This document shows, one piece after another, positions 990 through 48,203 of a stretch of DNA of 64,000 nt. The position numbers were made by a program, and so were the translations under genes. The notes below the pieces were generated by a model, which saw nothing but the letters and a program-made list of their open reading frames with translations, was not told the DNA's origin and did not search any database. Position 1 is the first letter of the stretch, and each line of letters opens with the position of its first letter. Source of the DNA: Microgenomates group bacterium Gr01-1014_5 (lineage in GTDB: Bacteria > Patescibacteriota > Microgenomatia > UBA8517 > UBA10165); contig VMGE01000003.1 in NCBI GenBank assembly GCA_007376395.1, positions 26,057 through 90,056 on the forward strand, written 5' to 3'.

Positions 990-1307
990 TCACCCCGCTT
1001 TCGAAATTAAATCTTCAAATGGTTTTTTACCGTTAAAGCCTACTTGCCTGCTAACTTCCTGTCCGCCTTTAAAAAGGATGGTTGTTGGGATAGAGAGTAC
1101 GCCATATTTTTGCGGAGTATTAGAGTTTTTGTCGACATCTAATTTTGCCATAACTACTTTATCTTGTGAATTTGACAGTTCTTCAAGAACCGGTTCCGCC
1201 AATTTACAAGGACCGCACCAGGTTGCAAAAAAATCTAAAAGCACTGGTTTGCCGCTTTGTAAAACCTTACTTTCAAAATCTTGGTCAGAAACTTCAATTA
1301 AAGCCAT
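990..1307 (-). CDS. trxA: Thioredoxin
   Basis: WCGPCK active-site motif; 105 aa. Confidence 0.9.
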   Translation of the reverse strand: MALIEVSDQDFESKVLQSGKPVLLDFFATWCGPCKLAEPVLEELSNSQDKVVMAKLDVDKNSNTPQKYGVLSIPTTILFKGGQEVSRQVGFNGKKPFEDLISKAG

Positions 1308-1353: not shown

Positions 1354-3582
1354 TCACAATCTTGCGTTTTTCAGCCTCAAAGAGTTGGCCACAACCGAAA
1401 TAGAGCTTGCGGCCATAGCAAAAGAGGCAAGCGCTGGACTTAACAGCCAACCGGTAAGGGGATATAAAACTCCCATGGCAACAGGAATTAAAATAATATT
1501 GTAGCCAAACGCCCAAAAAAGATTTTGGCGGATTATACCCATTGTCTTTTTTGACAAATCAACTGCCCGGGCTACTGAGCGCAAATCACGATTTATCAGT
1601 GTTATGTTTCCTGCCTCAATTGCCACATCAGTTCCGGATCCCATGGCAATTCCGACGTCAGAAGCGGCAAGAGCCGGGGCGTCATTTATCCCATCCCCGA
1701 CCATCGCCACCTTTTTACCCTCTGCCTGGATTTTTCTCACTTCGGCTTCTTTATCTTGAGGTAACACTTCTGCTAATACTCTTTTTATCCCTACTTGCCC
1801 GGCGATTGCTTTGGCAGTTCGCGCGTTGTCACCGGTAATCATGACAGTTTCAATTCCCATCTTTTGCAGAGCCAAAACTCCGTCTTTGGCAGTATCTTTA
1901 ACGGTATCGGCAACTGCAACCAGTCCTATAAGTTTACCGTCAACAGCAAGCATCATTACTGTTTTCCCAGCACTCTCCAATCCTACAAGGTGAGACCTTG
2001 TAGGCTCAATATCTATCTTCTCTTTTTCCATCATCTTTCTGTTTCCCAAAAACACTTTCTGCTTACCCACCATTCCCTCCACCCCATGCCCGGGAATTGC
2101 TTTAAACCCTGTAACTTTGTATAAGGCGACCCCTTGTTCATCTGCTTTTTTCACAATCGCCTCAGCCAGAGAATGCTCTGAACCTTTTTCCAAAGATGCA
2201 GCCAGTTGTAGCAGTTTTTCTTTTGTTACTTTTGCCTTGTCACTTGTTACTATATCCGTGACGATTGGTTTTCCGTTTGTCAACGTCCCTGTTTTGTCAA
2301 AAATAACGACATTGATTTTATTCGCTATTTCCAAACTCTCAGCGTCTTTAATTAAAATTCCATGTTCCGCCCCGCGTCCTGTACCAACCATAATGGCAGT
2401 AGGCGTTGCCAATCCCATGGCGCAAGGACAAGCAATAATCAAAACCGCGATACTGTTTAGCATGGCAAATAAGAACGCGCTTTGCTGTCCAAAAACATAC
2501 CAGCTAACAAACGTGGCTATGGCCAGCATGATTACAACCGGCACAAAATAAGAAGAGATTAAGTCTGCCAAGCGCTGGATTGGAGCCTTTGAGCCCTGAG
2601 CTTCCTCAACCAGTTTTATAATTTGGGCGAGTAAGGTTTCTTGTCCAACTTTTTCTGCTTTATAAAGAAAAGAGCCGGACTTATTCATTGTCGCCCCAAT
2701 AACCTTATCTCCTCTGGTTTTATCAACAGGAATACTCTCTCCGGTAACCATCGACTCGTCAATCGACGATTCTCCTTCGGTAATTACCCCGTCTACGGGA
2801 ATCTTTTCACCCGGCCGGACACGGATTATATCCCCTATCTGTACTTGGTCAATAGAGATGTCAATTTCTTTACCCGCTCTCACAACCCGAGCAGTTTTTG
2901 CCTGCAAACCAATTAATTTTTTAATTGCCTCGCTCGTTCCCGCCTTTGCTTTTGCTTCAAAATATCGCCCCAAGAGAATTAATCCAATAATTACCGCCGT
3001 CACATCAAAGTAAGGCATTGGTTCAATTCCGGCTTGAGAGACCATTTGAGGAAAAAAAGTTACAACAGTAGAATAGATAAATGCCACAGATGTACCCAGA
3101 GCTACTAAGGTGTCCATATTGGCCGTTCTGTGGCGCAAAGCGGGAATTGTTGCCCGGTAAAACGTGAGTCCTGCCCAAAATTGAACAGGCAGGGCAAGGA
3201 GAAACTGGACAATAAAGTCTTGCAAAAAACTAGGCGAGGTCTGAATCAGTCCCGGGAAACTACCCCAGACAATCGGCGCCGCAAGCCCGAGACTTACCAG
3301 CACTTTTGTTCTTAGATCCTTTAGTTCACGAGTTTTTTGTTCTTTCTCTTCATCCAACGTCTGTTCTTGATGTCCCACCATTGCTTTGTAGCCAACATTA
3401 GCAACGGCAGAAGCCAGCTTTTCGTCAGTTACTTGTCCGCCGCAAACCACAGTAGCTTTACCGGTTGCAAGATTGACGCTTGCGCGCTCCACGCCGGGAA
3501 CTTTTCCGAGAGATTTCTCCAAAATACGCACACAAGAGGCACAATGCATTCCTTGAATAGAAAAGGTTTTAGTTTGTGCCAT
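1354..3582 (-). CDS. copA: Copper-translocating P1B-type ATPase. The likely start is MAQTKTF at 3582; the ORF track extends to 3627.
   Basis: N-terminal HMA domain GMHCASC. CPC transmembrane motif [18 protein letters not shown] phosphorylation site. GDGINDAP hinge. Confidence 0.92.
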
Positions 3583-3584
3583 AT

Positions 3585-3950
3585 TTACCTCACGATTATT
3601 TTTCCATGGTACATGTTCATACCGCATGAATAACCAAACTCACCAGATTTTTGGGGTGTAATTTCAATCGTAACTTTTTGGTTTAAAGGAAGATACTTTT
3701 TGATCTTGAAATCAGGCAGAACAACCTCTTCTAAGCACGAATTGGAATCTTTACGGATAAAGTTTATCTTTGTAGTTTTTCCTCTGGGTATAGAAATAAC
3801 TTCAGGGGAATAGCCGCCTTCTACAACAACATCTATCCCCTGCCCTCCCGTAGCTTCAGCGAAGGAGGGTTTTTTGCCCAAAAAAAACCAATAGGTAAAA
3901 ATAATACCGACAAAACCCAAACCTATAACCAATAGATCTTTTAATTCCAT
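3585..3950 (-). CDS. Membrane-anchored small protein with a cupredoxin-like C-terminal metal-binding motif ([10 protein letters not shown])
   Basis: N-terminal TM helix. C-terminal C-G-M-N-M-Y-H-G resembles the C-terminus of the ORF at 7323..8321 (YTCSMGMFTG). It is adjacent to copA. Confidence 0.5.
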
Positions 3951-3959
3951 GATTTTAAA

Positions 3960-4283
3960 TTACTTTGAGAATTTGTTGTAGAAATAAGCAATCGCATACC
4001 CGACCGTCCAGGAAAAAGCAGTTGAGGTTGCAAGGCCCCAAACAACAGTCCCCATCCCTATTTCTTTCCCGCTTCTCAAAGACTCAAGGTTCAAAGCATG
4101 AACCCAAGAGTTTGAAAGGCTTAGTAATAAATCAGGCGCAACCCAAGTTAGCACTAAGCAGACAATGTAAATAACTCCGGTAACTACTGCGGCGGCGTTC
4201 GCAAAAGCGGTTGTTTTTAACATCTTTCTCACCTCCTTTAGTGTTTGTGACCCTTCATCATAAAAATCATCATTATCGGACAA
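3960..4283 (-). CDS. Hypothetical membrane protein
   Basis: ORF track; hydrophobic segments; lies within the copper cluster. Confidence 0.4.
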   Translation of the reverse strand: MSDNDDFYDEGSQTLKEVRKMLKTTAFANAAAVVTGVIYIVCLVLTWVAPDLLLSLSNSWVHALNLESLRSGKEIGMGTVVWGLATSTAFSWTVGYAIAYFYNKFSK

Positions 4284-4386
4284 ATCAACAAAACCGCAAA
4301 AGGCAACACTGCATTAACATTGGTATTTTGCAACAAGAGCAACAGCAATAATACTCCTACAGCTGCGACCCATATTTGCCACATTG
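4238..4386 (-). CDS. Small membrane protein with a Met/His-rich C-terminus (MMIFMMKGHKH). Likely start is MWQIW at about 4386.
   Basis: One TM helix and a Met/His tail typical of Cu-binding peptides. The track ORF extends to 4453 in a region overlapping the neighbouring ORF. Confidence 0.35.
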
Positions 4387-4564
4387 TCAAATATTTTTTC
4401 ACAAAAAACACCTCCTTATTTTTTATTAATCTGTTTCCAGAGCCAAATTCCAAGCAGTGTTAAATCTACCAGTAAGACCAAAACAAAGAGCGTTCCTACG
4501 CCAAAACCTTGATACCCCATCATGTTTCCATAGTTCCATCCCATCATTTGCACTTCACCTCCTG

Positions 4565-5398
4565 TTAAACTTTTTTAAAAATATGCCCTAATAGATATAT
4601 TAACCCAACAACGAGGATTATGTTTATCAGGATATTGTTCCCTACAAACGAATCAATCAACTCTGCCGAACCGGTAATCATCTTTGTAAAACCTTCCATG
4701 TTGTCGATAGACAATTTTCCCGCCCTTTCAAGGCTAAGTATTAATACTCCTGTTACAAAGAAAATACTTGAGGCAATAAGATTGCCCAGAGTCACCACAA
4801 ACCTTCTGCCCCAAAAATTCAAGATTCCGATAGAGCGCCTTAAAACTGCCAATTTTTGGGCTTTTCCGTCCAAAAACAAAGAAATAAACAAAAGCGGCAC
4901 CACCATCCCCAAAACATACATGCCGCCAATTGCCAAAGCGCCCAAAAAGCTCGGAGATAAAAACGTTAGAGTTAATATTCCAATTAAAACCGGCGCACAG
5001 CAGGCGCTCGTTATTCCGGAAAAAACTCCAAGTGTAAAGATAGATAAAATGTCTGTTTTTTGCTGCCCGGATCTTGTTAGGTTCGGCATGGGCAATTTAA
5101 TTCCCAGGAAAGTAACGACGGCAACAACAAGCATGACTATTCCGCCGCTTAGGTAAATTTCGTTGTGATAACGGAACAGGGCTTGCGAAATAAAAGCAAC
5201 TCCCAAAACTGCCGGTAAGAGAACCACGAAAATTCCGGCGGCAAAAACTAAGGTTGCGAAAACTACTTTTTCTTTTTCTTTAAAAACAGACCCGAGGTAA
5301 GCCGGGAGCAGGAAAGTTATACAGCAGGGAGCAAATAGCGCAACCATACCCGCAACAAAGGCTGCGACTAAGGATGTTTGGAAAAGCATTTCCCCCAT
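4565..5398 (-). CDS. DsbD_2/CcdA-like thiol-disulfide membrane transporter
   Basis: Polytopic membrane protein with two Cys pairs in TM helices (FAPCCITFLLP and SACCAPVL). Confidence 0.5.
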   Translation of the reverse strand: MGEMLFQTSLVAAFVAGMVALFAPCCITFLLPAYLGSVFKEKEKVVFATLVFAAGIFVVLLPAVLGVAFISQALFRYHNEIYLSGGIVMLVVAVVTFLGIKLPMPNLTRSGQQKTDILSIFTLGVFSGITSACCAPVLIGILTLTFLSPSFLGALAIGGMYVLGMVVPLLFISLFLDGKAQKLAVLRRSIGILNFWGRRFVVTLGNLIASSIFFVTGVLILSLERAGKLSIDNMEGFTKMITGSAELIDSFVGNNILINIILVVGLIYLLGHIFKKV

Positions 5399-5401
5399 AT
5401 T

Positions 5402-6337
5402 TTAAGCTCCGCAGGATCCGCCTTTATTTTGGAAAGAGGGAATGTCCTGAACAGATTGTTTTATGCGCTGGGCACCAGTTGCAGAAGAATATTCCTGCGA
5501 CAAAGCAAGCTTTGCGTCCACTTTTTTCCAATCAATACCCTCTTTGTTAAAATATGCCGCCATTTCGACGTAAGTCTGCGGAAACCAAAAAGAGTTGAAA
5601 GCCAATAGGTCTTTATATATCTGGTCTTCGGGCAAACCTTTAGAAACCGCAAGCTGGATATATCCCAAAGCAGCCATGCCATGGTTGCAATCGGGAAAGG
5701 CTGTATTGTTGCCGCAGCAAGGCCGGTATACATTTCCGGCTATCTTTGTCACCAAGTCCTGCTGATCTTGAGTTAGAGGAATAATTACTTTTGAGGAGTA
5801 ATAACTCATTGCATCCTTTTTCCCCAGTGTCCAGCCGCCTGTTGAGGCAAAGTTTGCCGTTTGTTTCGGATCTTTCTGCATTTGACCTTTTGTCAAAACG
5901 TCGCTTTTATTAACAAGCCCCAACGCCCACAAAGTATTCACCATAAAATGCGCGTTCTTTTCGTTGATAACCATATAGTCCCCAGACTCTTCTTCTAAGT
6001 ATTTCATATAGTCTCCACCATTAGTGTTATCGGTAAATATCTTTTTGTATTTCTCTTCAGAGATAACCCCGGACTCAATCAGCTGTTTACCGATATTTCC
6101 CCAAGAAACCACTGTTCTAAAGCCGTCAGGCGGCAAAACTTCCTGTTTGAGAATGTTGACCAGCTCCTCGGGGTCTTTTGTCGACTTGGAAAGTTCAAGA
6201 AAATTTAGTTGGAGCTGTTTTTGGGAGAGATAATACTGAATTATGCCTGTATACAAAACCGAATTTAAAACAATTAAAATAACTGCCCAAAGGGGAATAG
6301 ATTTTGCGAGGATTTTTTTGATCTTTTTAAAGCTCAT
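5402..6337 (-). CDS. Membrane-anchored Cys-rich hypothetical protein
   Basis: N-terminal TM helix. Cys-rich segment PCCGNNTAFPDCNHGM and a C-terminal GGSCGA. Sits in the CsoR/CopA cluster. Confidence 0.5.
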   Translation of the reverse strand: MSFKKIKKILAKSIPLWAVILIVLNSVLYTGIIQYYLSQKQLQLNFLELSKSTKDPEELVNILKQEVLPPDGFRTVVSWGNIGKQLIESGVISEEKYKKIFTDNTNGGDYMKYLEEESGDYMVINEKNAHFMVNTLWALGLVNKSDVLTKGQMQKDPKQTANFASTGGWTLGKKDAMSYYSSKVIIPLTQDQQDLVTKIAGNVYRPCCGNNTAFPDCNHGMAALGYIQLAVSKGLPEDQIYKDLLAFNSFWFPQTYVEMAAYFNKEGIDWKKVDAKLALSQEYSSATGAQRIKQSVQDIPSFQNKGGSCGA

Positions 6338-6828
6338 TTAACTACAACTCCTTTTAAGGAAAATTCAAGTTTTGGTTTAATCTTATCATTAGTTTCTACA
6401 GAAACTAAACGCGTAATAGGGCCGACGCCGGTCGGACCATGAAAGGTCGGGTCGTAAATTACTGTCAATTGCGCCTCTTTTCCGGGAGACACCTCGCCGC
6501 TCCAGGAAGAGGTTGGGTGCATACTAAAATACGGGCTTTGTCCTTGTTCAGTTGTAATTTGCGCTTTGGTACAAGTGCACGAAGTTTTAATGTTTAGCAG
6601 TTTCAATGTTTCTGTGCCTTCATTTTTAATAACAAAGGTTTTTAGGGCGTTGCCGCCAGCATACGGTATTGTTCCCCAGTCAAAGGAAATTTCCGGCGTT
6701 ACAGCCTTTACATTGCTCGAGGATTCCAAAACAGCAGGTTTTCCGGTTAAGGCAGTTGCGAACCAAACAGCACCTGCAACTAAAGTTATTAAAGATAGTA
6801 CAAGCCAAAACACCAGTTTAAGGTTCAT
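6334..6828 (-). CDS. DUF1573-like beta-sandwich protein with an N-terminal TM anchor
   Basis: TSCTCT motif and size (164 aa) consistent with DUF1573. Has a 4-nt overlap with the downstream gene. Confidence 0.5.
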   Translation of the reverse strand: MNLKLVFWLVLSLITLVAGAVWFATALTGKPAVLESSSNVKAVTPEISFDWGTIPYAGGNALKTFVIKNEGTETLKLLNIKTSCTCTKAQITTEQGQSPYFSMHPTSSWSGEVSPGKEAQLTVIYDPTFHGPTGVGPITRLVSVETNDKIKPKLEFSLKGVVVK

Positions 6829-7154
6829 TGTTTGTTTTTAAAAATCTTTAAGATTTCTTTCAAAGATTCTTCTGTTTCCCCATTTTTTATTTGATCCGCG
6901 ACGCAGGTTTTTAAGTGGTTATCAAGAAGAACGCTGTCTGCTTCTTTTATAGCCTTTTGTACGGCACGCGATTGATGAATTACGTCTGGGCAATAATCTC
7001 CGTTATCCACCATTTGAATAACCTTGGCTAAATGTCCGCTGGCAATTTTTAAGCGGTGAAGAACCGCTTGTTTTATCGATGAATCTCTGGGAATTCCTTT
7101 TGGCATCTCGTCGTTTCCTCCACACGATGTAAACTTCTTCATTATATCCCCCAT
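6825..7154 (-). CDS. csoR: CsoR/RcnR-family copper-sensing transcriptional repressor. An alternative start is MKKF at 7142.
   Basis: YCPDVIHQ...KTC places the C-H-C ligand triad in the CsoR arrangement; about 105 aa; first gene of the copper operon. Confidence 0.85.
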   Translation of the reverse strand: MGDIMKKFTSCGGNDEMPKGIPRDSSIKQAVLHRLKIASGHLAKVIQMVDNGDYCPDVIHQSRAVQKAIKEADSVLLDNHLKTCVADQIKNGETEESLKEILKIFKNKQ

Positions 7155-7201
7155 ATGGGGATTAAGTCAAGACTACTGGTTTGTCTTTGGCAATACCGAT
7201 A

Positions 7202-7294
7202 TGACATCCTCCCCGCTCTGACGAGCGGGGTTTCCACCTCTAAAGGAGGATGACATATCAGCGTTCAATTCATCTCCCGGCTGTGAGCCGGGAG
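7202..7294. promoter_or_regulatory. Divergent promoter/operator region with a GC-rich hairpin ccccgctc-tgac-gagcgggg (about 7211-7230), flanking imperfect inverted repeat ATGACATCCTCC/GGAGGATGACAT, and a second hairpin ctcccggct-gtg-agccgggag (about 7274-7294) followed by TTTTCTT.
   Basis: Seen directly in sequence between csoR (minus) and the ORF at 7323 (plus). CsoR operators are typically C/G-tract pseudo-palindromes. Confidence 0.4.
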
Positions 7295-7322
7295 TTTTCT
7301 TGAATGCTGTTATAATAACGTT

Positions 7323-8321
7323 ATGCAAATTATCTGGCTTGCTTTTATCACCGGTTTAACCACAGGCGGGCTAACTTGTCTGGCGGTACAAGGCGGCCTT
7401 TTAGCCTCGGCTGTTGACCAGAAAAATAGAATTTCGACTAAGTATTTGGTGGGCACTTTTTTACTTACTAAACTTTTTGCCTATACCCTGCTCGGTTTTG
7501 GGCTGGGATCTCTCGGGTCTGTCTTAACTCTTTCCCCGACTACTCAAGGATGGATGCAAATCGCAGCCGGACTTTATATGCTGGCGACTGCGGCTAGACT
7601 CTTGGATTTACACCCAATTTTCCGTTATACCGCGCTCCAACCCCCTAAATGGGCGTTCTACGCCGCGCGTAAAATAACCAAAAATGAATCTCTTTTTACG
7701 CCAGGCATTTTGGGATTTATGACAGTATTTATCCCCTGCGGAGTCACACAAGCAATGATGGTTTTGGCAATCACCTCGGGCGACCCTCTAACAGGAGCCG
7801 GAATTATGTTTGCCTTTACCCTTGGTACCAGCCCGATTTTCTATGCCTTGGGAGCAGGCGCGGTCCAACTTATCCAGCGCAAGTCCTTTGCATATGCCGC
7901 CGCCTTACTGGTTGCCATACTGGGGGTAGGTTCGGTAAACAGCGGACAGGCTTTGCGCGGATCGGTGCACACCCTGCAAAACTACTGGCTGGCGGCTACA
8001 ACTGATACGCTGACGACTTATGCCCAAGGGACACGTGCAAAAATCAATTCAGAAGGTAAACAAGAGGTTACTATTAACGTTTCTGACCGCGGCTATTCTA
8101 CCCAAGTAGACACTTTAAAAGCAGGCATACCGGTTAAACTCACACTCGTTACAAACAACGTTCAGGGCTGTACACGGGCGTTCACCATCCCTTCTTTAAA
8201 CATGTCACGCGTCTTGCCGCAAACAGGAAAGGAAATGCTCGAATTTACGCCAACTCAAGCCGGCCGCCTGTCATACACTTGCAGTATGGGCATGTTTACA
8301 GGAAGCTTTCAAGTAATATGA
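7323..8321 (+). CDS. Polytopic membrane protein fused to a C-terminal cupredoxin-like soluble domain. Putative copper-related permease.
   Basis: Multiple TM helices at the N-terminus. The C-terminal roughly 90 aa end in YTCSMGMFTGSFQVI, paralogous to the end of the ORF at 3585..3950. Confidence 0.55.
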   Translation: MQIIWLAFITGLTTGGLTCLAVQGGLLASAVDQKNRISTKYLVGTFLLTKLFAYTLLGFGLGSLGSVLTLSPTTQGWMQIAAGLYMLATAARLLDLHPIFRYTALQPPKWAFYAARKITKNESLFTPGILGFMTVFIPCGVTQAMMVLAITSGDPLTGAGIMFAFTLGTSPIFYALGAGAVQLIQRKSFAYAAALLVAILGVGSVNSGQALRGSVHTLQNYWLAATTDTLTTYAQGTRAKINSEGKQEVTINVSDRGYSTQVDTLKAGIPVKLTLVTNNVQGCTRAFTIPSLNMSRVLPQTGKEMLEFTPTQAGRLSYTCSMGMFTGSFQVI

Positions 8322-8539
8322 AAAGGCTAGATTCTACAACCTACAAACTACCGACTAAAACCTTCTCCATAAAAGGTATGCATTGTTCATCTTGCGCCTC
8401 ATTGATAGAACTAGAGCTCGAAGATGTTGGAATTAAAGCCTCTTGCAGTTACCCCAAACAAGCTCTGGAAGTCGACGAGAATATTGATAAAGAGGAATTA
8501 AAAAAAGTTATCCAGCCTTTGGGATACGATGTCGAGTAA
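8318..8539 (+). CDS. copZ: Heavy-metal-associated (CopZ-like) copper chaperone. Start at MKRL overlaps the upstream stop as ATGA.
   Basis: GMHCSSC (GMxCxxC) motif; 73 aa from the ATG at 8318. The track ORF begins at 8279. Confidence 0.8.
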   Translation: MKRLDSTTYKLPTKTFSIKGMHCSSCASLIELELEDVGIKASCSYPKQALEVDENIDKEELKKVIQPLGYDVE

Positions 8540-9506
8540 TATCGTATACTCGGGTATTAGGAAGTTTGAGACCCAAGAGGTACCCGACATCCCGAAGACT
8601 AACATGGTCTGCAAGAAGATGAACCGCAAACGAGCGGCGTAGTGTATGGGTTGTAATATCTTCAGGCAATCCCACGGCTCTCACATAACCTTTAAAAATC
8701 AACCAAATACCTTGCCGGGTTAACCTTTCCTCACGGTGGCTGACAAAAAGAGCGTCTGTTTCGGCGTGCCACAAACCCGAGCGCGAGCCTTCTAGGTAAT
8801 TTTGGATTGCCTCGTGAGTTTTCAAATCAAACGGAATTTGTCTTTCACGCCCCAATCTTAAACACCGCACATAATCTACTCCTAGGTTTATGTCATCTTT
8901 ATTAAGACTTGCCATTTCCGAAACGCGCATACCGGTAGCATAGAATAACCTCAACATTGCCGAATCGCGCATTGCTTCAGGGCTTTTATTGGCTTCTGGC
9001 GCGGCCAGAAGAGCCGCAATTTCATTTTTACTCAAAACTCGAGGGAGAGCTCTGGAGGTTTTAGGTGTTTCTATATCCAGTAAGGGATTGGTTCTCATTA
9101 TCCCGTCTTCGATTTCCCAACGGAAAAAGGCTCTAGCCGAGGCAATTTTCCGTGCGATGGTTGCTGGAGCATATCTATGCTCCTCCAACGATAAGAGAAA
9201 TCCGCTCATATCTTCTTTAGTAACACTACTCCAGGTATGTGGACCCTTTCTCAGATCCAAATACCTGCCGAGTTGAGACAAATCACTGCGGTAGGCATCG
9301 ACCGTATTTCTTGGTGTCTTTATATCCTTTAGGCAATTAAGATAAGCCCTGACGCTCAGATCTGGAATTGGATACTCTGGATCTTTATAGAAAGGAAAAG
9401 AGCCGTTTGGCGCGGTGTCTCGTGGTGTTTGAAATAATTTTCGCCCGTGCTCTAACCCCATTTTAGTGTTTGAGCAGATATTAATACTAATCTGCAAGAC
9501 TTGCAA
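8508..9506 (-). CDS. Tyrosine site-specific recombinase (XerC/XerD-like)
   Basis: GMRVSEM (R box), HTLRRSFAVHLL (H-x-x-R) and a C-terminal LGLKLPNTRVYDITRH with the catalytic Tyr. Confidence 0.8.
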   Translation of the reverse strand: MQVLQISINICSNTKMGLEHGRKLFQTPRDTAPNGSFPFYKDPEYPIPDLSVRAYLNCLKDIKTPRNTVDAYRSDLSQLGRYLDLRKGPHTWSSVTKEDMSGFLLSLEEHRYAPATIARKIASARAFFRWEIEDGIMRTNPLLDIETPKTSRALPRVLSKNEIAALLAAPEANKSPEAMRDSAMLRLFYATGMRVSEMASLNKDDINLGVDYVRCLRLGRERQIPFDLKTHEAIQNYLEGSRSGLWHAETDALFVSHREERLTRQGIWLIFKGYVRAVGLPEDITTHTLRRSFAVHLLADHVSLRDVGYLLGLKLPNTRVYDITRHRIPKAG

Positions 9507-25256: not shown

Positions 25257-26219
25257 CTAAATCAATCCAATTTGACCACCACTGCCGTTACCTGCTCTGG
25301 GATTTTTCTTTACAGATTTTGAGTTAATTTCAGCAGTGGCATTGCCGGTAACTCTTACAATAAGACTGCGAAATCCCAGTTCTTTGAGCTTGTTAATTAA
25401 TCTTTTGTTCTCTTTAAATCCATTAAGTTTGGCTCGTTCTAAATCAAACTCCAACGGCACGTCGTCTCTTATTGTTGCTAATTCTTTTGACAGCACCCCG
25501 CTCTCCTGTCCTTCTACTAGTTTCTTTGCGATATTCTTGCCCAACTTCCAATCTCTAGCCTCTAACCTCTTGTAGATATTTTCCAGCGTGCCATATTCTT
25601 CAATAAGCGTAACAGCCGTCTTTGGGCCAATTCCGGGAACACCCGGGTAATTATCTGACGGATCGCCAGTTAAAGCTTTGTAATCAACTACTTGACCCGG
25701 AGTCACACCCAAATACTCCCGCACCCCCGCACTATCAAAAATACGCGTCTGGCTAATACCTTTGGCTGGCATACAAATCTTAACGCCTTCGCCAACCAGC
25801 TGCAGCATGTCCCTGTCTCCAGTAACCACAATTACCTCGTTTACATCTTTGTGCTCTATGGCTTGGCGCGCAACAGTGGCAATCACATCGTCTGCTTCAA
25901 AACCCGGGGCTGTAAAAATAGGAATGTCTGCCGCCTCTACTACTTCCTGCACTATAGATATTTGGTCTTTCATCTCAAGATCCATGGATTTTCTTTTTGC
26001 TTGATAAGCAATATAAGCCGCGTGGCGAAACGTCGGAAACGGAAGGTCGAAGGCAACCGCTAAATAGTCAGGTTTTAATTCATCTATGGTTTTTAAAAGT
26101 AAGGCGGTGAAGCCATATACTGCATTGACTAACTTGCCAGAAGGTGAAGACAGCGCAGGATATGCATAATACGCCCGGTAAACCATCGCATGGCCATCTA
26201 TTAAAACTAATCTTTTCAT
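25257..26219 (-). CDS. Standalone 5'-3' exonuclease (Pol I N-terminal/FEN-like domain)
   Basis: MKRLVLIDGHAMVYRAYYA and the H3TH motif GVPGIGPKTA; about 320 aa with no polymerase domain. Confidence 0.9.
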   Translation of the reverse strand: MKRLVLIDGHAMVYRAYYAYPALSSPSGKLVNAVYGFTALLLKTIDELKPDYLAVAFDLPFPTFRHAAYIAYQAKRKSMDLEMKDQISIVQEVVEAADIPIFTAPGFEADDVIATVARQAIEHKDVNEVIVVTGDRDMLQLVGEGVKICMPAKGISQTRIFDSAGVREYLGVTPGQVVDYKALTGDPSDNYPGVPGIGPKTAVTLIEEYGTLENIYKRLEARDWKLGKNIAKKLVEGQESGVLSKELATIRDDVPLEFDLERAKLNGFKENKRLINKLKELGFRSLIVRVTGNATAEINSKSVKKNPRAGNGSGGQIGLI

Positions 26220-39558: not shown

Positions 39559-39625
39559 TACTCAAACGGCTGATTGCTTTTTTTGATGGCCGTCTTGGAC
39601 AACCTGAGCAATCAGTTTGAGTACA
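39559..39625. promoter_or_regulatory. Imperfect inverted repeat GTACTCAAACGGCTGATTGCT ... AGCAATCAGTTTGAGTAC (about 28-nt spacer) upstream of the serine recombinase. It is a candidate attP-like site or operator.
   Basis: Seen directly in sequence; 18/21 matched arms. Coordinates are within ±2 nt. Confidence 0.4.
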
Positions 39626-41386
39626 ACCAGGGCGGCCTTTAAAGATTTTATGGAAGAAAAACAAATCTATCTTCGCTATTTGGGGTATGTTCGCAAGAGT
39701 TCAGAAGATAACAAGGAGCGACAAGCCGCTTCCCTCCCCGAGCAGTTATATGTACTCGAAGGAATTAAAGCAAAACACAACTTAACTCTCGTTGATACTC
39801 TCCAAGAATCAAAATCGGCACACAAGCCTGGGCGGGAAATCTTTAACAATATGCTTGCCCGAATAGAGAGCAGTGAAGCAAACGCAATTTTAACCTGGCA
39901 CCCCAACAGGCTTTGCCGTAACGCACTTGATGCTGGACAACTTCTTTATCTCATGGACGAAGATAAATTAGTCGAAATTCGCACACCTTCGCGGACATAT
40001 CGAAATACCCCAGAAGACAAATTTATGTTGACCCTTGAATTTGGTATGTCCAAAAAAGACTCGGACGATAAAAGCATTGTTGTTGAAAGAGGTTTGGAAA
40101 AGAAAGCAAGGGACGGCTGGAGGCCAGGTGTTGCTCCACAAGGATACTTGAATGATAAAACAACAGAGAGTGGCTTTAGAAAGATACTGACTGACCCTGA
40201 AAGGTTGTCCTTTATTAAGAAAATCTTTGAGCTTTTTTCCAATGGAACTTCTGTAGTTGAAATCCACAGAATTGCCAAAGACGAATGGAAATTTCTCTCA
40301 AGACAAAAGAAACGAAGCGGTGGTATACCGCTTTCTTTGAGCATGATTTATAAGATGTTGACTAACCCTTTTTATTGCGGAAAGTTTGAGTATCCAGAAG
40401 GAAGCGGCAAATGGTACGAAGGCGCACACGAACCAGCAGTAGACCAAAAGATATTTGACGAAATACAGGTCAAATTAGGCCGCAGAAGCCAATACAAGCT
40501 CCAACATCACAACTTTGCCTATACAGGTAGTATGGTTCGCTGTGGTTCGTGTAATTCAAGCATAGTAGCCGAGCAAAAATGGCAGTGTATTTGTACCAAG
40601 TGCAAGCTAAAATTCTCGCTTACCAAGAAAAATAAAGAAAGGTGTACTGGTTGTGGGACTCTTATCAAGAATATGTCCGACCCAACTATTCTCCACTATG
40701 TCTATTATCGTTGCGGACGGAAAAAGAATCCGAATTGTAGGGAGCGTGCAGAAAGAGTTGATAGGCTTGAGAAGCAAATTGATGAAAAACTCTCTCAAAT
40801 TGAAATCTCACCCTTGTTTATGGACTGGGCAATACGCCAAATCCACAAGATGAATGATAGTAATAAAGATTTTACAGAAGAAGCCATAGAGAGCATTAAA
40901 CGAGCCCATGACGGATGCAGGGCAAAGCTTACTAACTTACTGCAACTTAAAATTTCACCTGCAAATAGCGATGGTGGCCTTATCAGCGACGAGAAATACA
41001 AGGAAGAAAAGGATAAATTAGAAATAGAGTTAAAAGGAGTAGAAAAACAACTTGTTAATACTGACGACAGAATGTTGCAGGCAAATGAAGAGACTGTAAA
41101 AGCGTTTACTTTTGTTGCCAGAGCAAAAGAAAGGTTTGCAACTGATGATTTGAAAATAAAACGAGATATTTTTTTGGGACTTGGGTCGCACCTAACTTTG
41201 CAAAATAAAACAGTCGGAATTATAGCACCAAAATACATTTATACGATCGAAAAAATGAAAGAAGCTGAGCCGATTATCGCAGAACGGGTCGCACCTGGAA
41301 ATCAGCCTGAATATACGCACCAAATGGAGACATATTTTGCCTCCAATCCTACTCTGTTGCGGGGCCGGGAGTCGCGCCCGGCCTAG
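39617..41386 (+). CDS. Large serine recombinase (phage-integrase type)
   Basis: N-terminal resolvase catalytic domain YLGYVRKSSEDNKERQAASLPEQ with the catalytic Ser. A recombinase domain, a Cys-rich zinc ribbon (CGSCNS...CTKCK...CTGCG) and a coiled-coil follow. Confidence 0.88.
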   Translation: MSTTRAAFKDFMEEKQIYLRYLGYVRKSSEDNKERQAASLPEQLYVLEGIKAKHNLTLVDTLQESKSAHKPGREIFNNMLARIESSEANAILTWHPNRLCRNALDAGQLLYLMDEDKLVEIRTPSRTYRNTPEDKFMLTLEFGMSKKDSDDKSIVVERGLEKKARDGWRPGVAPQGYLNDKTTESGFRKILTDPERLSFIKKIFELFSNGTSVVEIHRIAKDEWKFLSRQKKRSGGIPLSLSMIYKMLTNPFYCGKFEYPEGSGKWYEGAHEPAVDQKIFDEIQVKLGRRSQYKLQHHNFAYTGSMVRCGSCNSSIVAEQKWQCICTKCKLKFSLTKKNKERCTGCGTLIKNMSDPTILHYVYYRCGRKKNPNCRERAERVDRLEKQIDEKLSQIEISPLFMDWAIRQIHKMNDSNKDFTEEAIESIKRAHDGCRAKLTNLLQLKISPANSDGGLISDEKYKEEKDKLEIELKGVEKQLVNTDDRMLQANEETVKAFTFVARAKERFATDDLKIKRDIFLGLGSHLTLQNKTVGIIAPKYIYTIEKMKEAEPIIAERVAPGNQPEYTHQMETYFASNPTLLRGRESRPA

Positions 41387-41733
41387 GAGATTATGCATCT
41401 GTAATCTCTAATTACTCAGAGTGTCGGACTATATCTTCACCCCGATTAAATCGGGGGCTCGGCGTGTAGTCTCTACGGTGTCCCTCCGAAACTTTAGTGA
41501 AGGAGGGTTCCCTCGGTATTACCCTCTATAAGAGTAGGGTTTCACCGATATAGCCAAGTTATCAAGAAACATTACTGTTAAATGTGCCCAATTTGAGCCT
41601 CCTGTGCAACTCTACACTACCCCGCATGTCTCTTACCAACTGAATTATAACAGATGCAGGCTCGAATTAAAAGCCTCTTGACTACCAATAGAATAGCTGT
41701 TATGGTGATAGTTAAACCACATAACTTTATACA
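41387..41733 (+). other. Highly structured ~345-nt non-coding region with several perfect hairpins. Candidate ncRNA or attachment-site region.
   Basis: Hairpins CCCCGATT-taaa-ATCGGGG, CCCTCC-gaaactttagtga-GGAGGG and CTCT-ata-AGAG; no ORF; GC is higher than in surrounding intergenic DNA. Confidence 0.3.
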
Positions 41734-42423
41734 TTGATCAGGAAACCCCTAGAAAAACAAAAAGCTCAAGAGCTACGAAAGCAAGGCAAGAGTATCGGAG
41801 AAATAGCACAAGAACTTGGAATTTCAACCTCAACAGTTAGCTTGTGGGTAAGAAATATTACTTTAACAACTGAGCAGAAAAAACGGCTTGAAAATAAGGT
41901 GTTTACTACCCTACAGAAAGGTAGGATTATCGCCCAGGAGGTTCAAAAACAATTAAGAGACAATCTCAAAAGAGAAATCTCTGCCGAAGCCGTACTACAA
42001 CTCGGAAAACTCTCAAAAAGAGACCTTTTTATTGCCGGAATTATCCTATATTGGACAGAGGGTTTTAAAAAAGATAATCGGTTAGGATTTGCAAATTCCG
42101 ACCCACAAATGGTCAAGTTATTCTTAAAATGGCTTTATACCTTGGGAGTACCAAAAAATAGTATCCGTTTAAGAGTTGGGATAAATATTAGCCACAAAAA
42201 GAGAGTTAAGGTTATAGAAAAATATTGGTCTAAACAAACCAACATCCCCCTTTCTCAATTTCAGAAGCCCTTTTTTCAAAAATTTATATGGAAAAAAGAA
42301 TTTCCTGATCCAAACTTATACCATGGAGTTATAAGAGTGCGTGCCATAAACCAAGGCAGATTGTTCATAAAAATACTTAAATGGATAGCATTGGTAAGAA
42401 CTTCAAATAATACTTTGCTATAA
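41734..42423 (+). CDS. HTH plus LAGLIDADG-like homing endonuclease fusion (paralog B; TTG start)
   Basis: ELRKQGKSIGEIAQELGISTSTVSLWVR HTH; FIAGIILYWTEGFKK. Confidence 0.6.
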   Translation: MIRKPLEKQKAQELRKQGKSIGEIAQELGISTSTVSLWVRNITLTTEQKKRLENKVFTTLQKGRIIAQEVQKQLRDNLKREISAEAVLQLGKLSKRDLFIAGIILYWTEGFKKDNRLGFANSDPQMVKLFLKWLYTLGVPKNSIRLRVGINISHKKRVKVIEKYWSKQTNIPLSQFQKPFFQKFIWKKEFPDPNLYHGVIRVRAINQGRLFIKILKWIALVRTSNNTLL

Positions 42424-48125: not shown

Positions 48126-48203
48126 GGTGGGCCCAGTTGGACTCGAACCAACAAAACCTTCTAGGTATAAGCTAGACGCTCTGGCCAATTGAGCTATGGG
48201 CCC
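48126..48203 (-). tRNA. tRNA with apparent anticodon UAU (Ile, AUA-decoding type) and an atypical 7-nt variable region
   Basis: Hand fold GGGCCCA-TA-GCTC-AATTGGCCA-GAGC-G-TCTAG-CTTATAC-CTAGA-AGGTTTT-GTTGG-TTCGAGT-CCAAC-TGGGCCC-A-CC. A TAAAAT box sits about 13 nt upstream. Confidence 0.7.

Follow-up and report, generated by a model that had tools for sequence, protein, structure and literature searches.

CupA-type cupredoxin domains in two membrane proteins of a Patescibacteria copper gene cluster, one of them fused to a DsbD_2 membrane domain

A 64,000-nucleotide stretch of contig VMGE01000003.1 of Microgenomates group bacterium Gr01-1014_5 (positions 26,057 to 90,056 of assembly GCA_007376395.1), hereafter the window, carries a copper gene cluster in which two different membrane proteins end in the same small domain. 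We identified this domain as the CupA-type Cu(I)-binding cupredoxin domain. In a protein of 121 amino acids it follows a single membrane helix, as in CupA of Streptococcus pneumoniae, and the gene lies immediately upstream of copA; in a protein of 332 amino acids it follows a six-helix DsbD_2 domain, and this fusion is an uncharacterised arrangement of known parts in a new combination. The best overall explanation, which we favour with slightly less than even confidence, is that the smaller protein is a membrane-tethered CupA homologue, with its domain in the cytoplasm, serving CopA and that the fusion, with its CupA-type domain facing outward, would form a Cu(I) relay together with a small HMA protein encoded next to it. 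The features of the two proteins and of CopA are as follows.

3585 to 3950, minus strand: CupA-like membrane-anchored Cu(I) chaperone, 121 amino acids (PF13473 and CupA matches)
about 3879 to 3944, minus strand: its transmembrane anchor, residues 3 to 24 (helix in the AlphaFold2 model)
3591 to 3839, minus strand: its cupredoxin domain, residues 38 to 120
3735 to 3737, 3624 to 3626, 3618 to 3620 and 3612 to 3614, minus strand: its ligand codons C72, C109, M111 and M113
7323 to 8321, plus strand: fusion of DsbD_2 and a CupA-type cupredoxin domain, 332 amino acids (PF13386, E 4.4e-25; PF13473, E 2.4e-10)
7323 to 7958, plus strand: its six-helix membrane domain, residues 1 to 212
7377 to 7379, plus strand: its intramembrane C19, motif C-x-A-V-Q-G-G
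7737 to 7739, plus strand: its intramembrane C139, motif P-C-G-x-T-Q
residues 213 to 245 of the fusion, plus strand: linker
8058 to 8318, plus strand: its cupredoxin domain, residues 246 to 332
8169 to 8171, 8280 to 8282, 8286 to 8288 and 8292 to 8294, plus strand: its ligand codons C283, C320, M322 and M324
1354 to 3582, minus strand: CopA, a Cu(I)-exporting ATPase of type P1B-1 that has a CPC motif and a single HMA domain at the N-terminus (NCBIfam CopA/TIGR01511)

Identity of the shared domain and its copper ligands

A preliminary description of the window, made from the letters alone, had proposed that the two proteins share a small metal-binding domain at their C-termini. Both open reading frames (ORFs) are present at the coordinates above, with the C-terminal ends that had been quoted (LSYTCSMGMFTGSFQVI in the fusion), and their likeness extends beyond the eight-residue tail: BLASTP aligned residues 42–120 of the smaller protein with residues 253–331 of the fusion without gaps, at 28% identity and E 9e-14. 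Both proteins pass the gathering cutoff of Pfam PF13473, Cupredoxin_1 (27 bits), the smaller one with 79.8 bits (E 1.7e-22) and the fusion with 40.8 bits (E 2.4e-10), and both match the same PDB chains. In PDB sequence searches, the 121-residue protein matched CupA (4F2E and 2MRY) at E 2.2e-24, with 46% identity over 89 ungapped residues, and, at E 1.8e-9, 4F2F, which is the cupredoxin-like N-terminal domain of S. pneumoniae CopA. The fusion matched CupA at E 4.7e-8 as a single sequence and 3e-13 as a family profile, and 4F2F at 1.4e-4 and 2e-11, respectively; the profile search matched the cupredoxin part only, and no CcdA/DsbD structure was retrieved for the membrane domain.

The AlphaFold2 models (pLDDT 80 for the smaller protein and 86 for the fusion) agree with these matches. 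Strands at residues 30–120 and 247–331 correspond to the beta-rich tails that had been predicted, and the helix at residues 3–24 to the single membrane anchor that had been assigned to the smaller protein. The best Foldseek matches for both models were 4F2E and 4F2F, with TM-scores of 0.84–0.90 and root-mean-square deviations of 1.5–1.9 Å; the smaller protein gave 0.84 and 1.8 Å against 4F2E, and the fusion gave 0.86–0.90 with 4F2F and 4F2E as its top matches. The third-best structural match was the B. anthracis 'Cupredoxin_1' protein (4HCF, 4HCG and 4HCI; TM-score 0.7–0.8), which has the same Pfam family and fold but only 17–19% identity and a profile E of 1.1, and which, to judge from the alignments, does not belong to the CupA ligand subgroup. 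Translated in six frames, the window (128,000 residues) contains the pattern C.M.M three times, two of them being the present sites. A tblastn search of the whole window with the 89-residue domain left the second copy undetected at E ≤ 10; the pairwise signal is thus modest and method-dependent, and the relationship is secure because of the profile and structural evidence.

The shared tail is therefore an already described domain and no new one, as PF13473 is the family of S. pneumoniae CupA (PMC5552934), and the view that it had not been described before does not stand. A confident match to a known family was found, yet the ligands are largely those that had been guessed. The folds of CusF and CopC, which had been named for comparison, were neither among the Pfam matches nor among the PDB sequence matches or the top Foldseek matches. 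The structure of the CupA-type cupredoxin domain was reportedly solved in 2013.

CupA coordinates copper through C74, C111, M113 and M115, with C74 and C111 forming site 1 and C74, M113 and M115 forming site 2 (PMC5646241; the motif is also given in PMC5552934). CupA hands Cu(I) on to CopA. Its site is a binuclear cluster bridged by one Cys (PMC7558416), and its two Cu(I) ions are bound with affinities of about 10^-17.9 M at S1 and about 10^-14.8 M at S2 (PMC9470648). According to the alignments, the equivalent residues are C72, C109, M111 and M113 in the 121-residue protein and C283, C320, M322 and M324 in the fusion. The Cys and Met residues previously proposed as a Cu(I) site are thus among the ligands, but the His or Thr that had been added to them falls outside the published set and varies among T, S, G and R in the fusion family; the bridging Cys (C72 and C283), a second conserved Cys about 37 residues upstream of the motif and one of the four known ligands, had been overlooked.

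These residues are strongly conserved. C72, C109, M111 and M113 are invariant in all 121 sequences made up of the query and its 120 closest homologues, and C283, C320, M322 and M324 are likewise invariant in the 120 closest homologues of the fusion; all six Cys and Met sites of the fusion, including the intramembrane pair, are invariant in close relatives. In a more diverse alignment, consisting of the fusion and 150 cluster representatives, the two cupredoxin Cys are kept in 138/138 and 136/137 sequences and the two Met in 127/137 and 128/138.

The 121-residue protein is a CupA homologue with a non-canonical partner. It resembles CupA in having an N-terminal single membrane helix followed by a cupredoxin domain of about 90 residues and in its gene position relative to copA. 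A conserved KK follows the helix, and the mean number of lysine plus arginine residues (K+R) is 3.15 after the helix and 0.92 before it; both features fit a domain on the cytoplasmic side, as in CupA. Most likely, the protein would pick up cytoplasmic Cu(I) at the membrane and hand it to CopA. Unlike in S. pneumoniae, the partner CopA carries a ferredoxin-like HMA domain, not a cupredoxin metal-binding domain, the regulator is CsoR, not CopY, and the host is a metagenome-assembled genome (MAG) of the Patescibacteria (Microgenomates). Pfam assigned HMA (residues 21–81 in the numbering of the 757-residue ORF 1354–3627), E1-E2_ATPase and Hydrolase domains to this CopA, and no PF13473 match was found in it or in CopA of the related loci L005 and L007, which likewise has an HMA domain. 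The copA start is likely ATG 3582, 2 nucleotides past the stop of the cupA-like gene, the listed ORF being over-extended to 3627.

In reviews, CupA is assigned to only a few streptococci and the pairing of one cupredoxin with another is stressed (PMC5646241, PMC7558416, PMC9470648); as late as 2022 it is still called 'singular'. The 121-residue protein, whose sequence is 100% identical to a protein recorded for Microgenomates group bacterium Gr01-1014_5, has at least 2,488 homologues at E ≤ 0.001, and among its best 120 homologues all those with an organism name are from Patescibacteria, where NCBI names them 'cupredoxin domain-containing protein'. CupA is thus wider than the reviews state, and the presence of its full ligand set beside an HMA-type CopA questions the need for a cupredoxin-type partner domain.

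The DsbD_2 fusion, its topology and its gene context

The fused domain has the same fold and all four ligands of CupA, but it sits on a six-helix membrane protein, is predicted to face outward and lacks the single anchor. The membrane part, previously called a permease, is indeed polytopic, and it is specifically a DsbD_2 domain; NCBI names the fusion proteins 'sulfite exporter TauE/SafE family protein'. The AlphaFold2 model shows six long helices followed by the beta domain, with helix 4 broken at P138-C139-G140. C19 in helix 1 is present in 128/128 and C139 in helix 4 in 147/147 of the aligned sequences in the diverse set. The fusion thereby resembles DsbD, CcdA and ScsB (PF02683 and PF13386; TC 5.A.1) in its six-helix 3+3 membrane domain, its Cys in helices 1 and 4, and its predicted N-out/C-out topology. 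Whereas those proteins have a thioredoxin-fold CxxC acceptor and a thioredoxin donor, the fusion has a Cu(I)-binding cupredoxin acceptor and a conserved HMA partner. The metal-binding domain of S. pneumoniae CopA (4F2F) shares the fold and the Cys...CxMxM site (TM-score 0.84–0.86) and is also attached to a membrane transporter; it is N-terminal and cytoplasmic on a P-type ATPase, whereas the present domain is C-terminal and predicted to be extracytoplasmic on DsbD_2.

The topology was deduced from charge bias over 115 sequences of the fusion family. The mean K+R is 2.8 in loop 1–2, 6.4 in loop 3–4 and 2.8 in loop 5–6, versus 0 at the N-terminus, 0.6 in loop 2–3 and 0.03 in loop 4–5. This bias places the N-terminus of the core outside and, given six helices, the C-terminus outside as well. 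All 17 examined relatives with an N-terminal extension have exactly one extra hydrophobic transmembrane helix before the DsbD_2 core, and 12 of them carry an N-terminal CxxC/HMA domain; the extra helix is what a cytoplasmic HMA domain and an outward-facing core N-terminus require. The CupA-type domain of the fusion is thus probably extracytoplasmic, and, with the fused domain outside, each face of the membrane would have one CupA domain from this cluster. Such a fusion would place a cytoplasmic-type Cu(I) site outside the membrane and join it to a CcdA-like Cys pair and a cytoplasmic CopZ, and its role presumably lies in copper defence.

Five further features of the cluster bear on the function of the fusion.

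8318 to 8539, plus strand: small cytoplasmic HMA (CopZ-like) protein, 73 amino acids, MHCSSC motif (PF00403, E 4e-9)
6825 to 7106, minus strand: CsoR-family Cu(I)-sensing repressor with the C-H-C fingerprint (DYC...NH-x3-C; PF02583, E 1.7e-22; best NCBIfam match RicR)
7146 to 7162, no strand assigned: CsoR-type operator palindrome ATCCCCCATATGGGGAT (sequence and promoter scan)
990 to 1307, minus strand: thioredoxin, the next gene downstream of copA (TIGR01068, above cutoff with E 1e-33)
4565 to 5398, minus strand: CcdA-like polytopic membrane protein of 277 amino acids (some relatives are named CcdA by NCBI)

The fusion and HMA genes form a pair that is divergent from csoR-...-cupA-copA-trx. 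The ATG of the HMA gene overlaps the fusion stop (ATATGA; sequence 8310–8325), the listed ORF being over-extended from 8279, and no hydrophobic segment was found in the 73-residue product. We examined the gene context in 80 species-representative related loci (L009–L088), some counts being based on 77 of them and the neighbours other than HMA being counted if they lie no more than 6 kb from the fusion gene. In 67/77 loci, the ORF immediately downstream of the fusion gene encodes an HMA protein, and in other relatives HMA is fused N-terminally to the same architecture. CopA is nearby in 65/80 loci, CsoR in 45/80 (36 of them divergent and adjacent) and a stand-alone CupA-like gene in 28/80. In other Patescibacteria, one operon holds csoR, HMA-DsbD_2-cupredoxin, in some cases DUF2933, HMA, cupA-like and copA.

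At least 584 species genomes in GTDB carry the fusion, mostly Microgenomates and also Chloroflexota (Anaerolineae), and cultured carriers are Anaerolinea thermolimosa IMO-1 and Longilinea arvoryzae KOME-1. Matches to the family amount to more than 5,300 proteins in a set of 5.8 billion sequences, and the fusions form 277 clusters at 50% identity (E ≤ 1e-30). Some variants have two or three CupA-type domains in tandem behind the DsbD_2 core (P0245, P0256, P0355, P0365, P0382 and P0390), and others, including P0314 and P0325, have an N-terminal HMA domain, an extra transmembrane helix and, at the C-terminus, about 120 additional residues that are unassigned. Many third-party-assembled MAGs with relatives of 50–63% identity (L010, L014, L019, L020 and others) bear the title 'uncultured Gammaproteobacteria/Pseudomonadales bacterium', probably through mislabelling of the records. 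The nearest published report is a computational study that places HMA-DsbD_2-DUF2318 proteins (COG2836) in the CsoR meta-regulon of Firmicutes (PMC4938975). Those proteins share HMA, DsbD_2 and predicted CsoR control with the present system, but their third domain is DUF2318, not Cupredoxin_1.

In the window, the palindrome is located between the divergent genes, some 160 bp upstream of the fusion gene and between the −35 (7170–7165) and −10 (7146–7141) elements of a csoR-side promoter (11/12 match in the promoter scan). In 34/77 related loci, the 260 bp preceding the fusion gene contain the pattern ATCCCC-N(2-5)-GGGGAT, versus a background of 0.01 per 260 bp, and the palindrome is often at −24 to −90 in related loci; it is also found in loci L001 (5929–5947) and L003 (5925–5941). 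An ATCCCC-N-GGGGAT palindrome has the form of known CsoR operators, and the conserved element is probably the CsoR operator of Patescibacteria. The csoR start is likely M17 of the listed ORF 6825..7154, at 7106: the L001 and L003 homologues have 92 residues, and the predicted −10 element overlaps the upstream ATGs. On the fusion side, a TATAAT about 9 nucleotides before the ATG suggests a leaderless mRNA. The stretch from the operator to the fusion gene holds two long hairpins, one at 7198–7259 with the inner stem CCCCGCTC/GAGCGGGG and one at 7255–7313 that contains a terminator-like element (CTCCCGGCT-GTG-AGCCGGGAG-TTTTCTT); both are absent from the intergenic regions of about 85 bp in L001 and L003. 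Rfam gave sub-threshold matches only for this hairpin-rich region (e.g., HgcC with 29 bits versus a gathering cutoff of 50), which we took as chance.

Copper relay, electron relay and other readings

For the fusion itself we tentatively prefer, as one possibility among several, a transmembrane Cu(I) thiolate relay under the control of CsoR. The data establish which domain is present, the conservation of its ligands and of the intramembrane Cys, the linkage to HMA, CopA and CsoR and the enrichment of the operator; the outward position of the domain and a role in copper defence are inferred. Cu(I) would move from the CxxC of the HMA protein to the intramembrane C19/C139 by thiolate ligand exchange and then from C19/C139 to the outer C283/C320, the high-affinity site, and to M322/M324. 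Such a relay would provide a copper-induced, ATP-independent route of export and sequestration beside CopA. It is conceivable, with about the same reserve, that the fusion and the HMA protein represent a new class of ATP-independent copper exporter, in which a CcdA-like elevator domain carries Cu(I), not electrons, on two intramembrane Cys. If the fusion is a copper carrier, it would be a new exporter type in which the DsbD lineage has been repurposed from electron to metal transport, and which is widespread in Patescibacteria and Anaerolineae under CsoR control.

Four points favour the Cu(I) relay. On the cytoplasmic side, the partner that is conserved, and in some cases fused, is a metallochaperone. 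The Met pair, useless for disulfide chemistry, is retained: the joint CCCCMM pattern is found in 106/114 sequences of the diverse set covering all six sites (about 93%), which suggests that the domain has been kept as a Cu(I) site. A separate CcdA-like gene (4565–5398) is already present in the cluster. Finally, most relatives of DsbD in the LysE superfamily export metals or amino acids (PMC4608589).

Several observations weigh against a copper relay. Seven of the eight exceptions to the CCCCMM pattern drop a Met and retain all four Cys, and loss of Met with Cys kept suits thiol-disulfide chemistry at least as well as metal transfer. The characterised members of the DsbD/CcdA lineage move electrons, not metal ions, and ATP-independent export of Cu(I) against chaperone affinities that are femtomolar or tighter requires a thermodynamic sink. 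Thioredoxin is enriched near the fusion gene, being found within 6 kb of it in 29/80 loci. Furthermore, the work on S. pneumoniae stresses the matching of the CupA and CopA cupredoxin domains (PMC7558416), and this matching is absent here because the present CopA has an HMA domain. Literature searches for DsbD_2 with cupredoxin, for PF13386 and for HMA with DsbD, CcdA or cupredoxin found no paper on the fusion architecture.

The main rival, which we regard as somewhat unlikely, is that the DsbD_2 domain acts like CcdA, DsbD or ScsB as an electron relay. Cytoplasmic thioredoxin would reduce the C19–C139 pair, which in turn would keep the outer C283/C320 reduced or restore them once Cu(II) has been reduced; Cu(I) leaving CopA could then be bound by the outer domain, and the HMA protein could be a cytoplasmic copper sensor or regulator or could simply serve CopA. 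The membrane domain belongs to PF13386, many relatives also match PF02683 (DsbD_TM), and one Cys in helix 1 with one in helix 4, both invariant, is the DsbD/CcdA signature. The acceptor domain is fused after the last helix, in parallel to DsbD-gamma, all four Cys are better conserved than the Met pair, and in the window the thioredoxin gene adjoins copA, its product being a possible electron donor for Cys-based sites. For CupA, it has been proposed that the Cys become oxidised when Cu(II) is reduced and depend on an unknown reductant, which may be thioredoxin (PMC5646241), and ScsB-type DsbD proteins support copper tolerance (PMC3322552, PMC4608589). However, the tightest and most conserved partner of the fusion is the HMA metallochaperone and not thioredoxin, the acceptor is not a thioredoxin-fold CxxC protein, and the retained Met pair and the separate CcdA-like gene speak against this reading just as they speak for the Cu(I) relay. 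If the fusion does carry electrons, it would be a new self-recharging extracellular copper chaperone.

It is quite unlikely that the predicted topology is wrong, so that the fused domain would be a polytopic tethered CupA on the cytoplasmic side, together with HMA and CopA, and the membrane part a mere anchor or an unrelated permease. CupA and CopA's metal-binding domain are cytoplasmic in S. pneumoniae (PMC7558416, PMC9470648), and the stretch after helix 6 is somewhat positive (2.55 K+R over 32 residues). Nevertheless, the K+R bias over five loops is strong and consistent over the family, the extra helix of the HMA-fused or N-extended relatives would be unnecessary if the N-terminus of the core were cytoplasmic, and the invariant intramembrane Cys weigh against a mere anchor.

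Copper import is very unlikely. The outer CupA-type domain would take up Cu(I) and pass it inward via the Cys pair to the cytoplasmic HMA protein, from which cuproproteins would be supplied, in the manner of MerP and MerT. The components are a mirror image of MerP-MerT, and the HMA protein gives a weak sub-threshold match to MerTP in the NCBIfam scan. As in MerT/MerP, an HMA domain, a protein with intramembrane Cys and a thiol site on the opposite side make a plausible ligand-exchange path, but the orientation is reversed here, with HMA inside, and the metal is copper. The gene stands behind a CsoR operator and beside the exporter gene copA, a position that argues for induction by copper excess, when import would be harmful.

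That the domain is a previously undescribed one, or a classical type 1 blue-copper or CuA electron-transfer cupredoxin, is extremely unlikely: the cupredoxin fold, the C-terminal Cys/Met motif and distant structural matches of the models to CuA domains and nitrous oxide reductase would fit, but a curated Pfam family and the solved structures of CupA are matched with confidence, and the fused domain (residues 246–332) has no histidine at all, so that the His-Cys-His-Met and CuA (Cys2His2Met) ligand sets are impossible in it. The only His of the 121-residue protein, H115, is off the canonical ligand position.

Accessory genes and other features of the window

The region between the cupA-like gene and csoR holds accessory genes (3960..6828) that recur in related copper loci. 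Besides the CcdA-like gene, they are as follows.

3960 to 4283, minus strand: DUF5676 (Pfam)
4238 to 4453, minus strand: DUF2933 (Pfam)
5402 to 6337, minus strand: unclassified protein of 311 amino acids
6334 to 6828, minus strand: DUF1573 protein (Pfam)

The small membrane proteins with DUF5676 and DUF2933 recur beside CopA and the fusion gene in several Patescibacteria copper loci (L001, L005 and L007). The CcdA-like protein of 277 residues contains doubled cysteines, with APCC (PCC) in the first helix and ACCAP later. It has no Pfam or NCBIfam match of its own, and a few of its 2,768 relatives have borderline PF02683 matches. Its comparison with the DsbD_2 fusion by hhalign gave a probability of 0.6%, which is not significant. 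We regard it as a second candidate thiol relay in the copper cluster. The 311-residue protein has an N-terminal transmembrane helix and the motif CCGNNTAFPDCNHG; no family match was found in Pfam, NCBIfam or PHROGs, and 15/80 related loci encode a homologue at most 6 kb from the fusion gene. The DUF1573 protein has a C-T-C motif and a sub-threshold NCBIfam match to 'OS_HP2 family (seleno)protein', and its gene is translationally coupled to csoR upstream and to the 311-residue protein gene downstream.

On the other side of the fusion operon, a tyrosine recombinase gene (8508–9506, minus strand), XerC-like by the appearance of its sequence, converges on the HMA gene with a 3' overlap of about 30 nucleotides, and a gene for a DUF3105 protein is next to it; the two may mark the boundary of a mobile copper island. 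Elsewhere in the window, a group I intron was matched in Rfam above the gathering cutoff (68 bits) at 41405–41605 on the minus strand, between ORFs 39617–41386 and 41734–42423, and no rRNA was detected in the window. A tRNA-Ile with the anticodon TAT (UAU) is encoded at 48126–48203 on the minus strand; a tRNA-Ile of this kind is an uncommon bacterial way of reading AUA.

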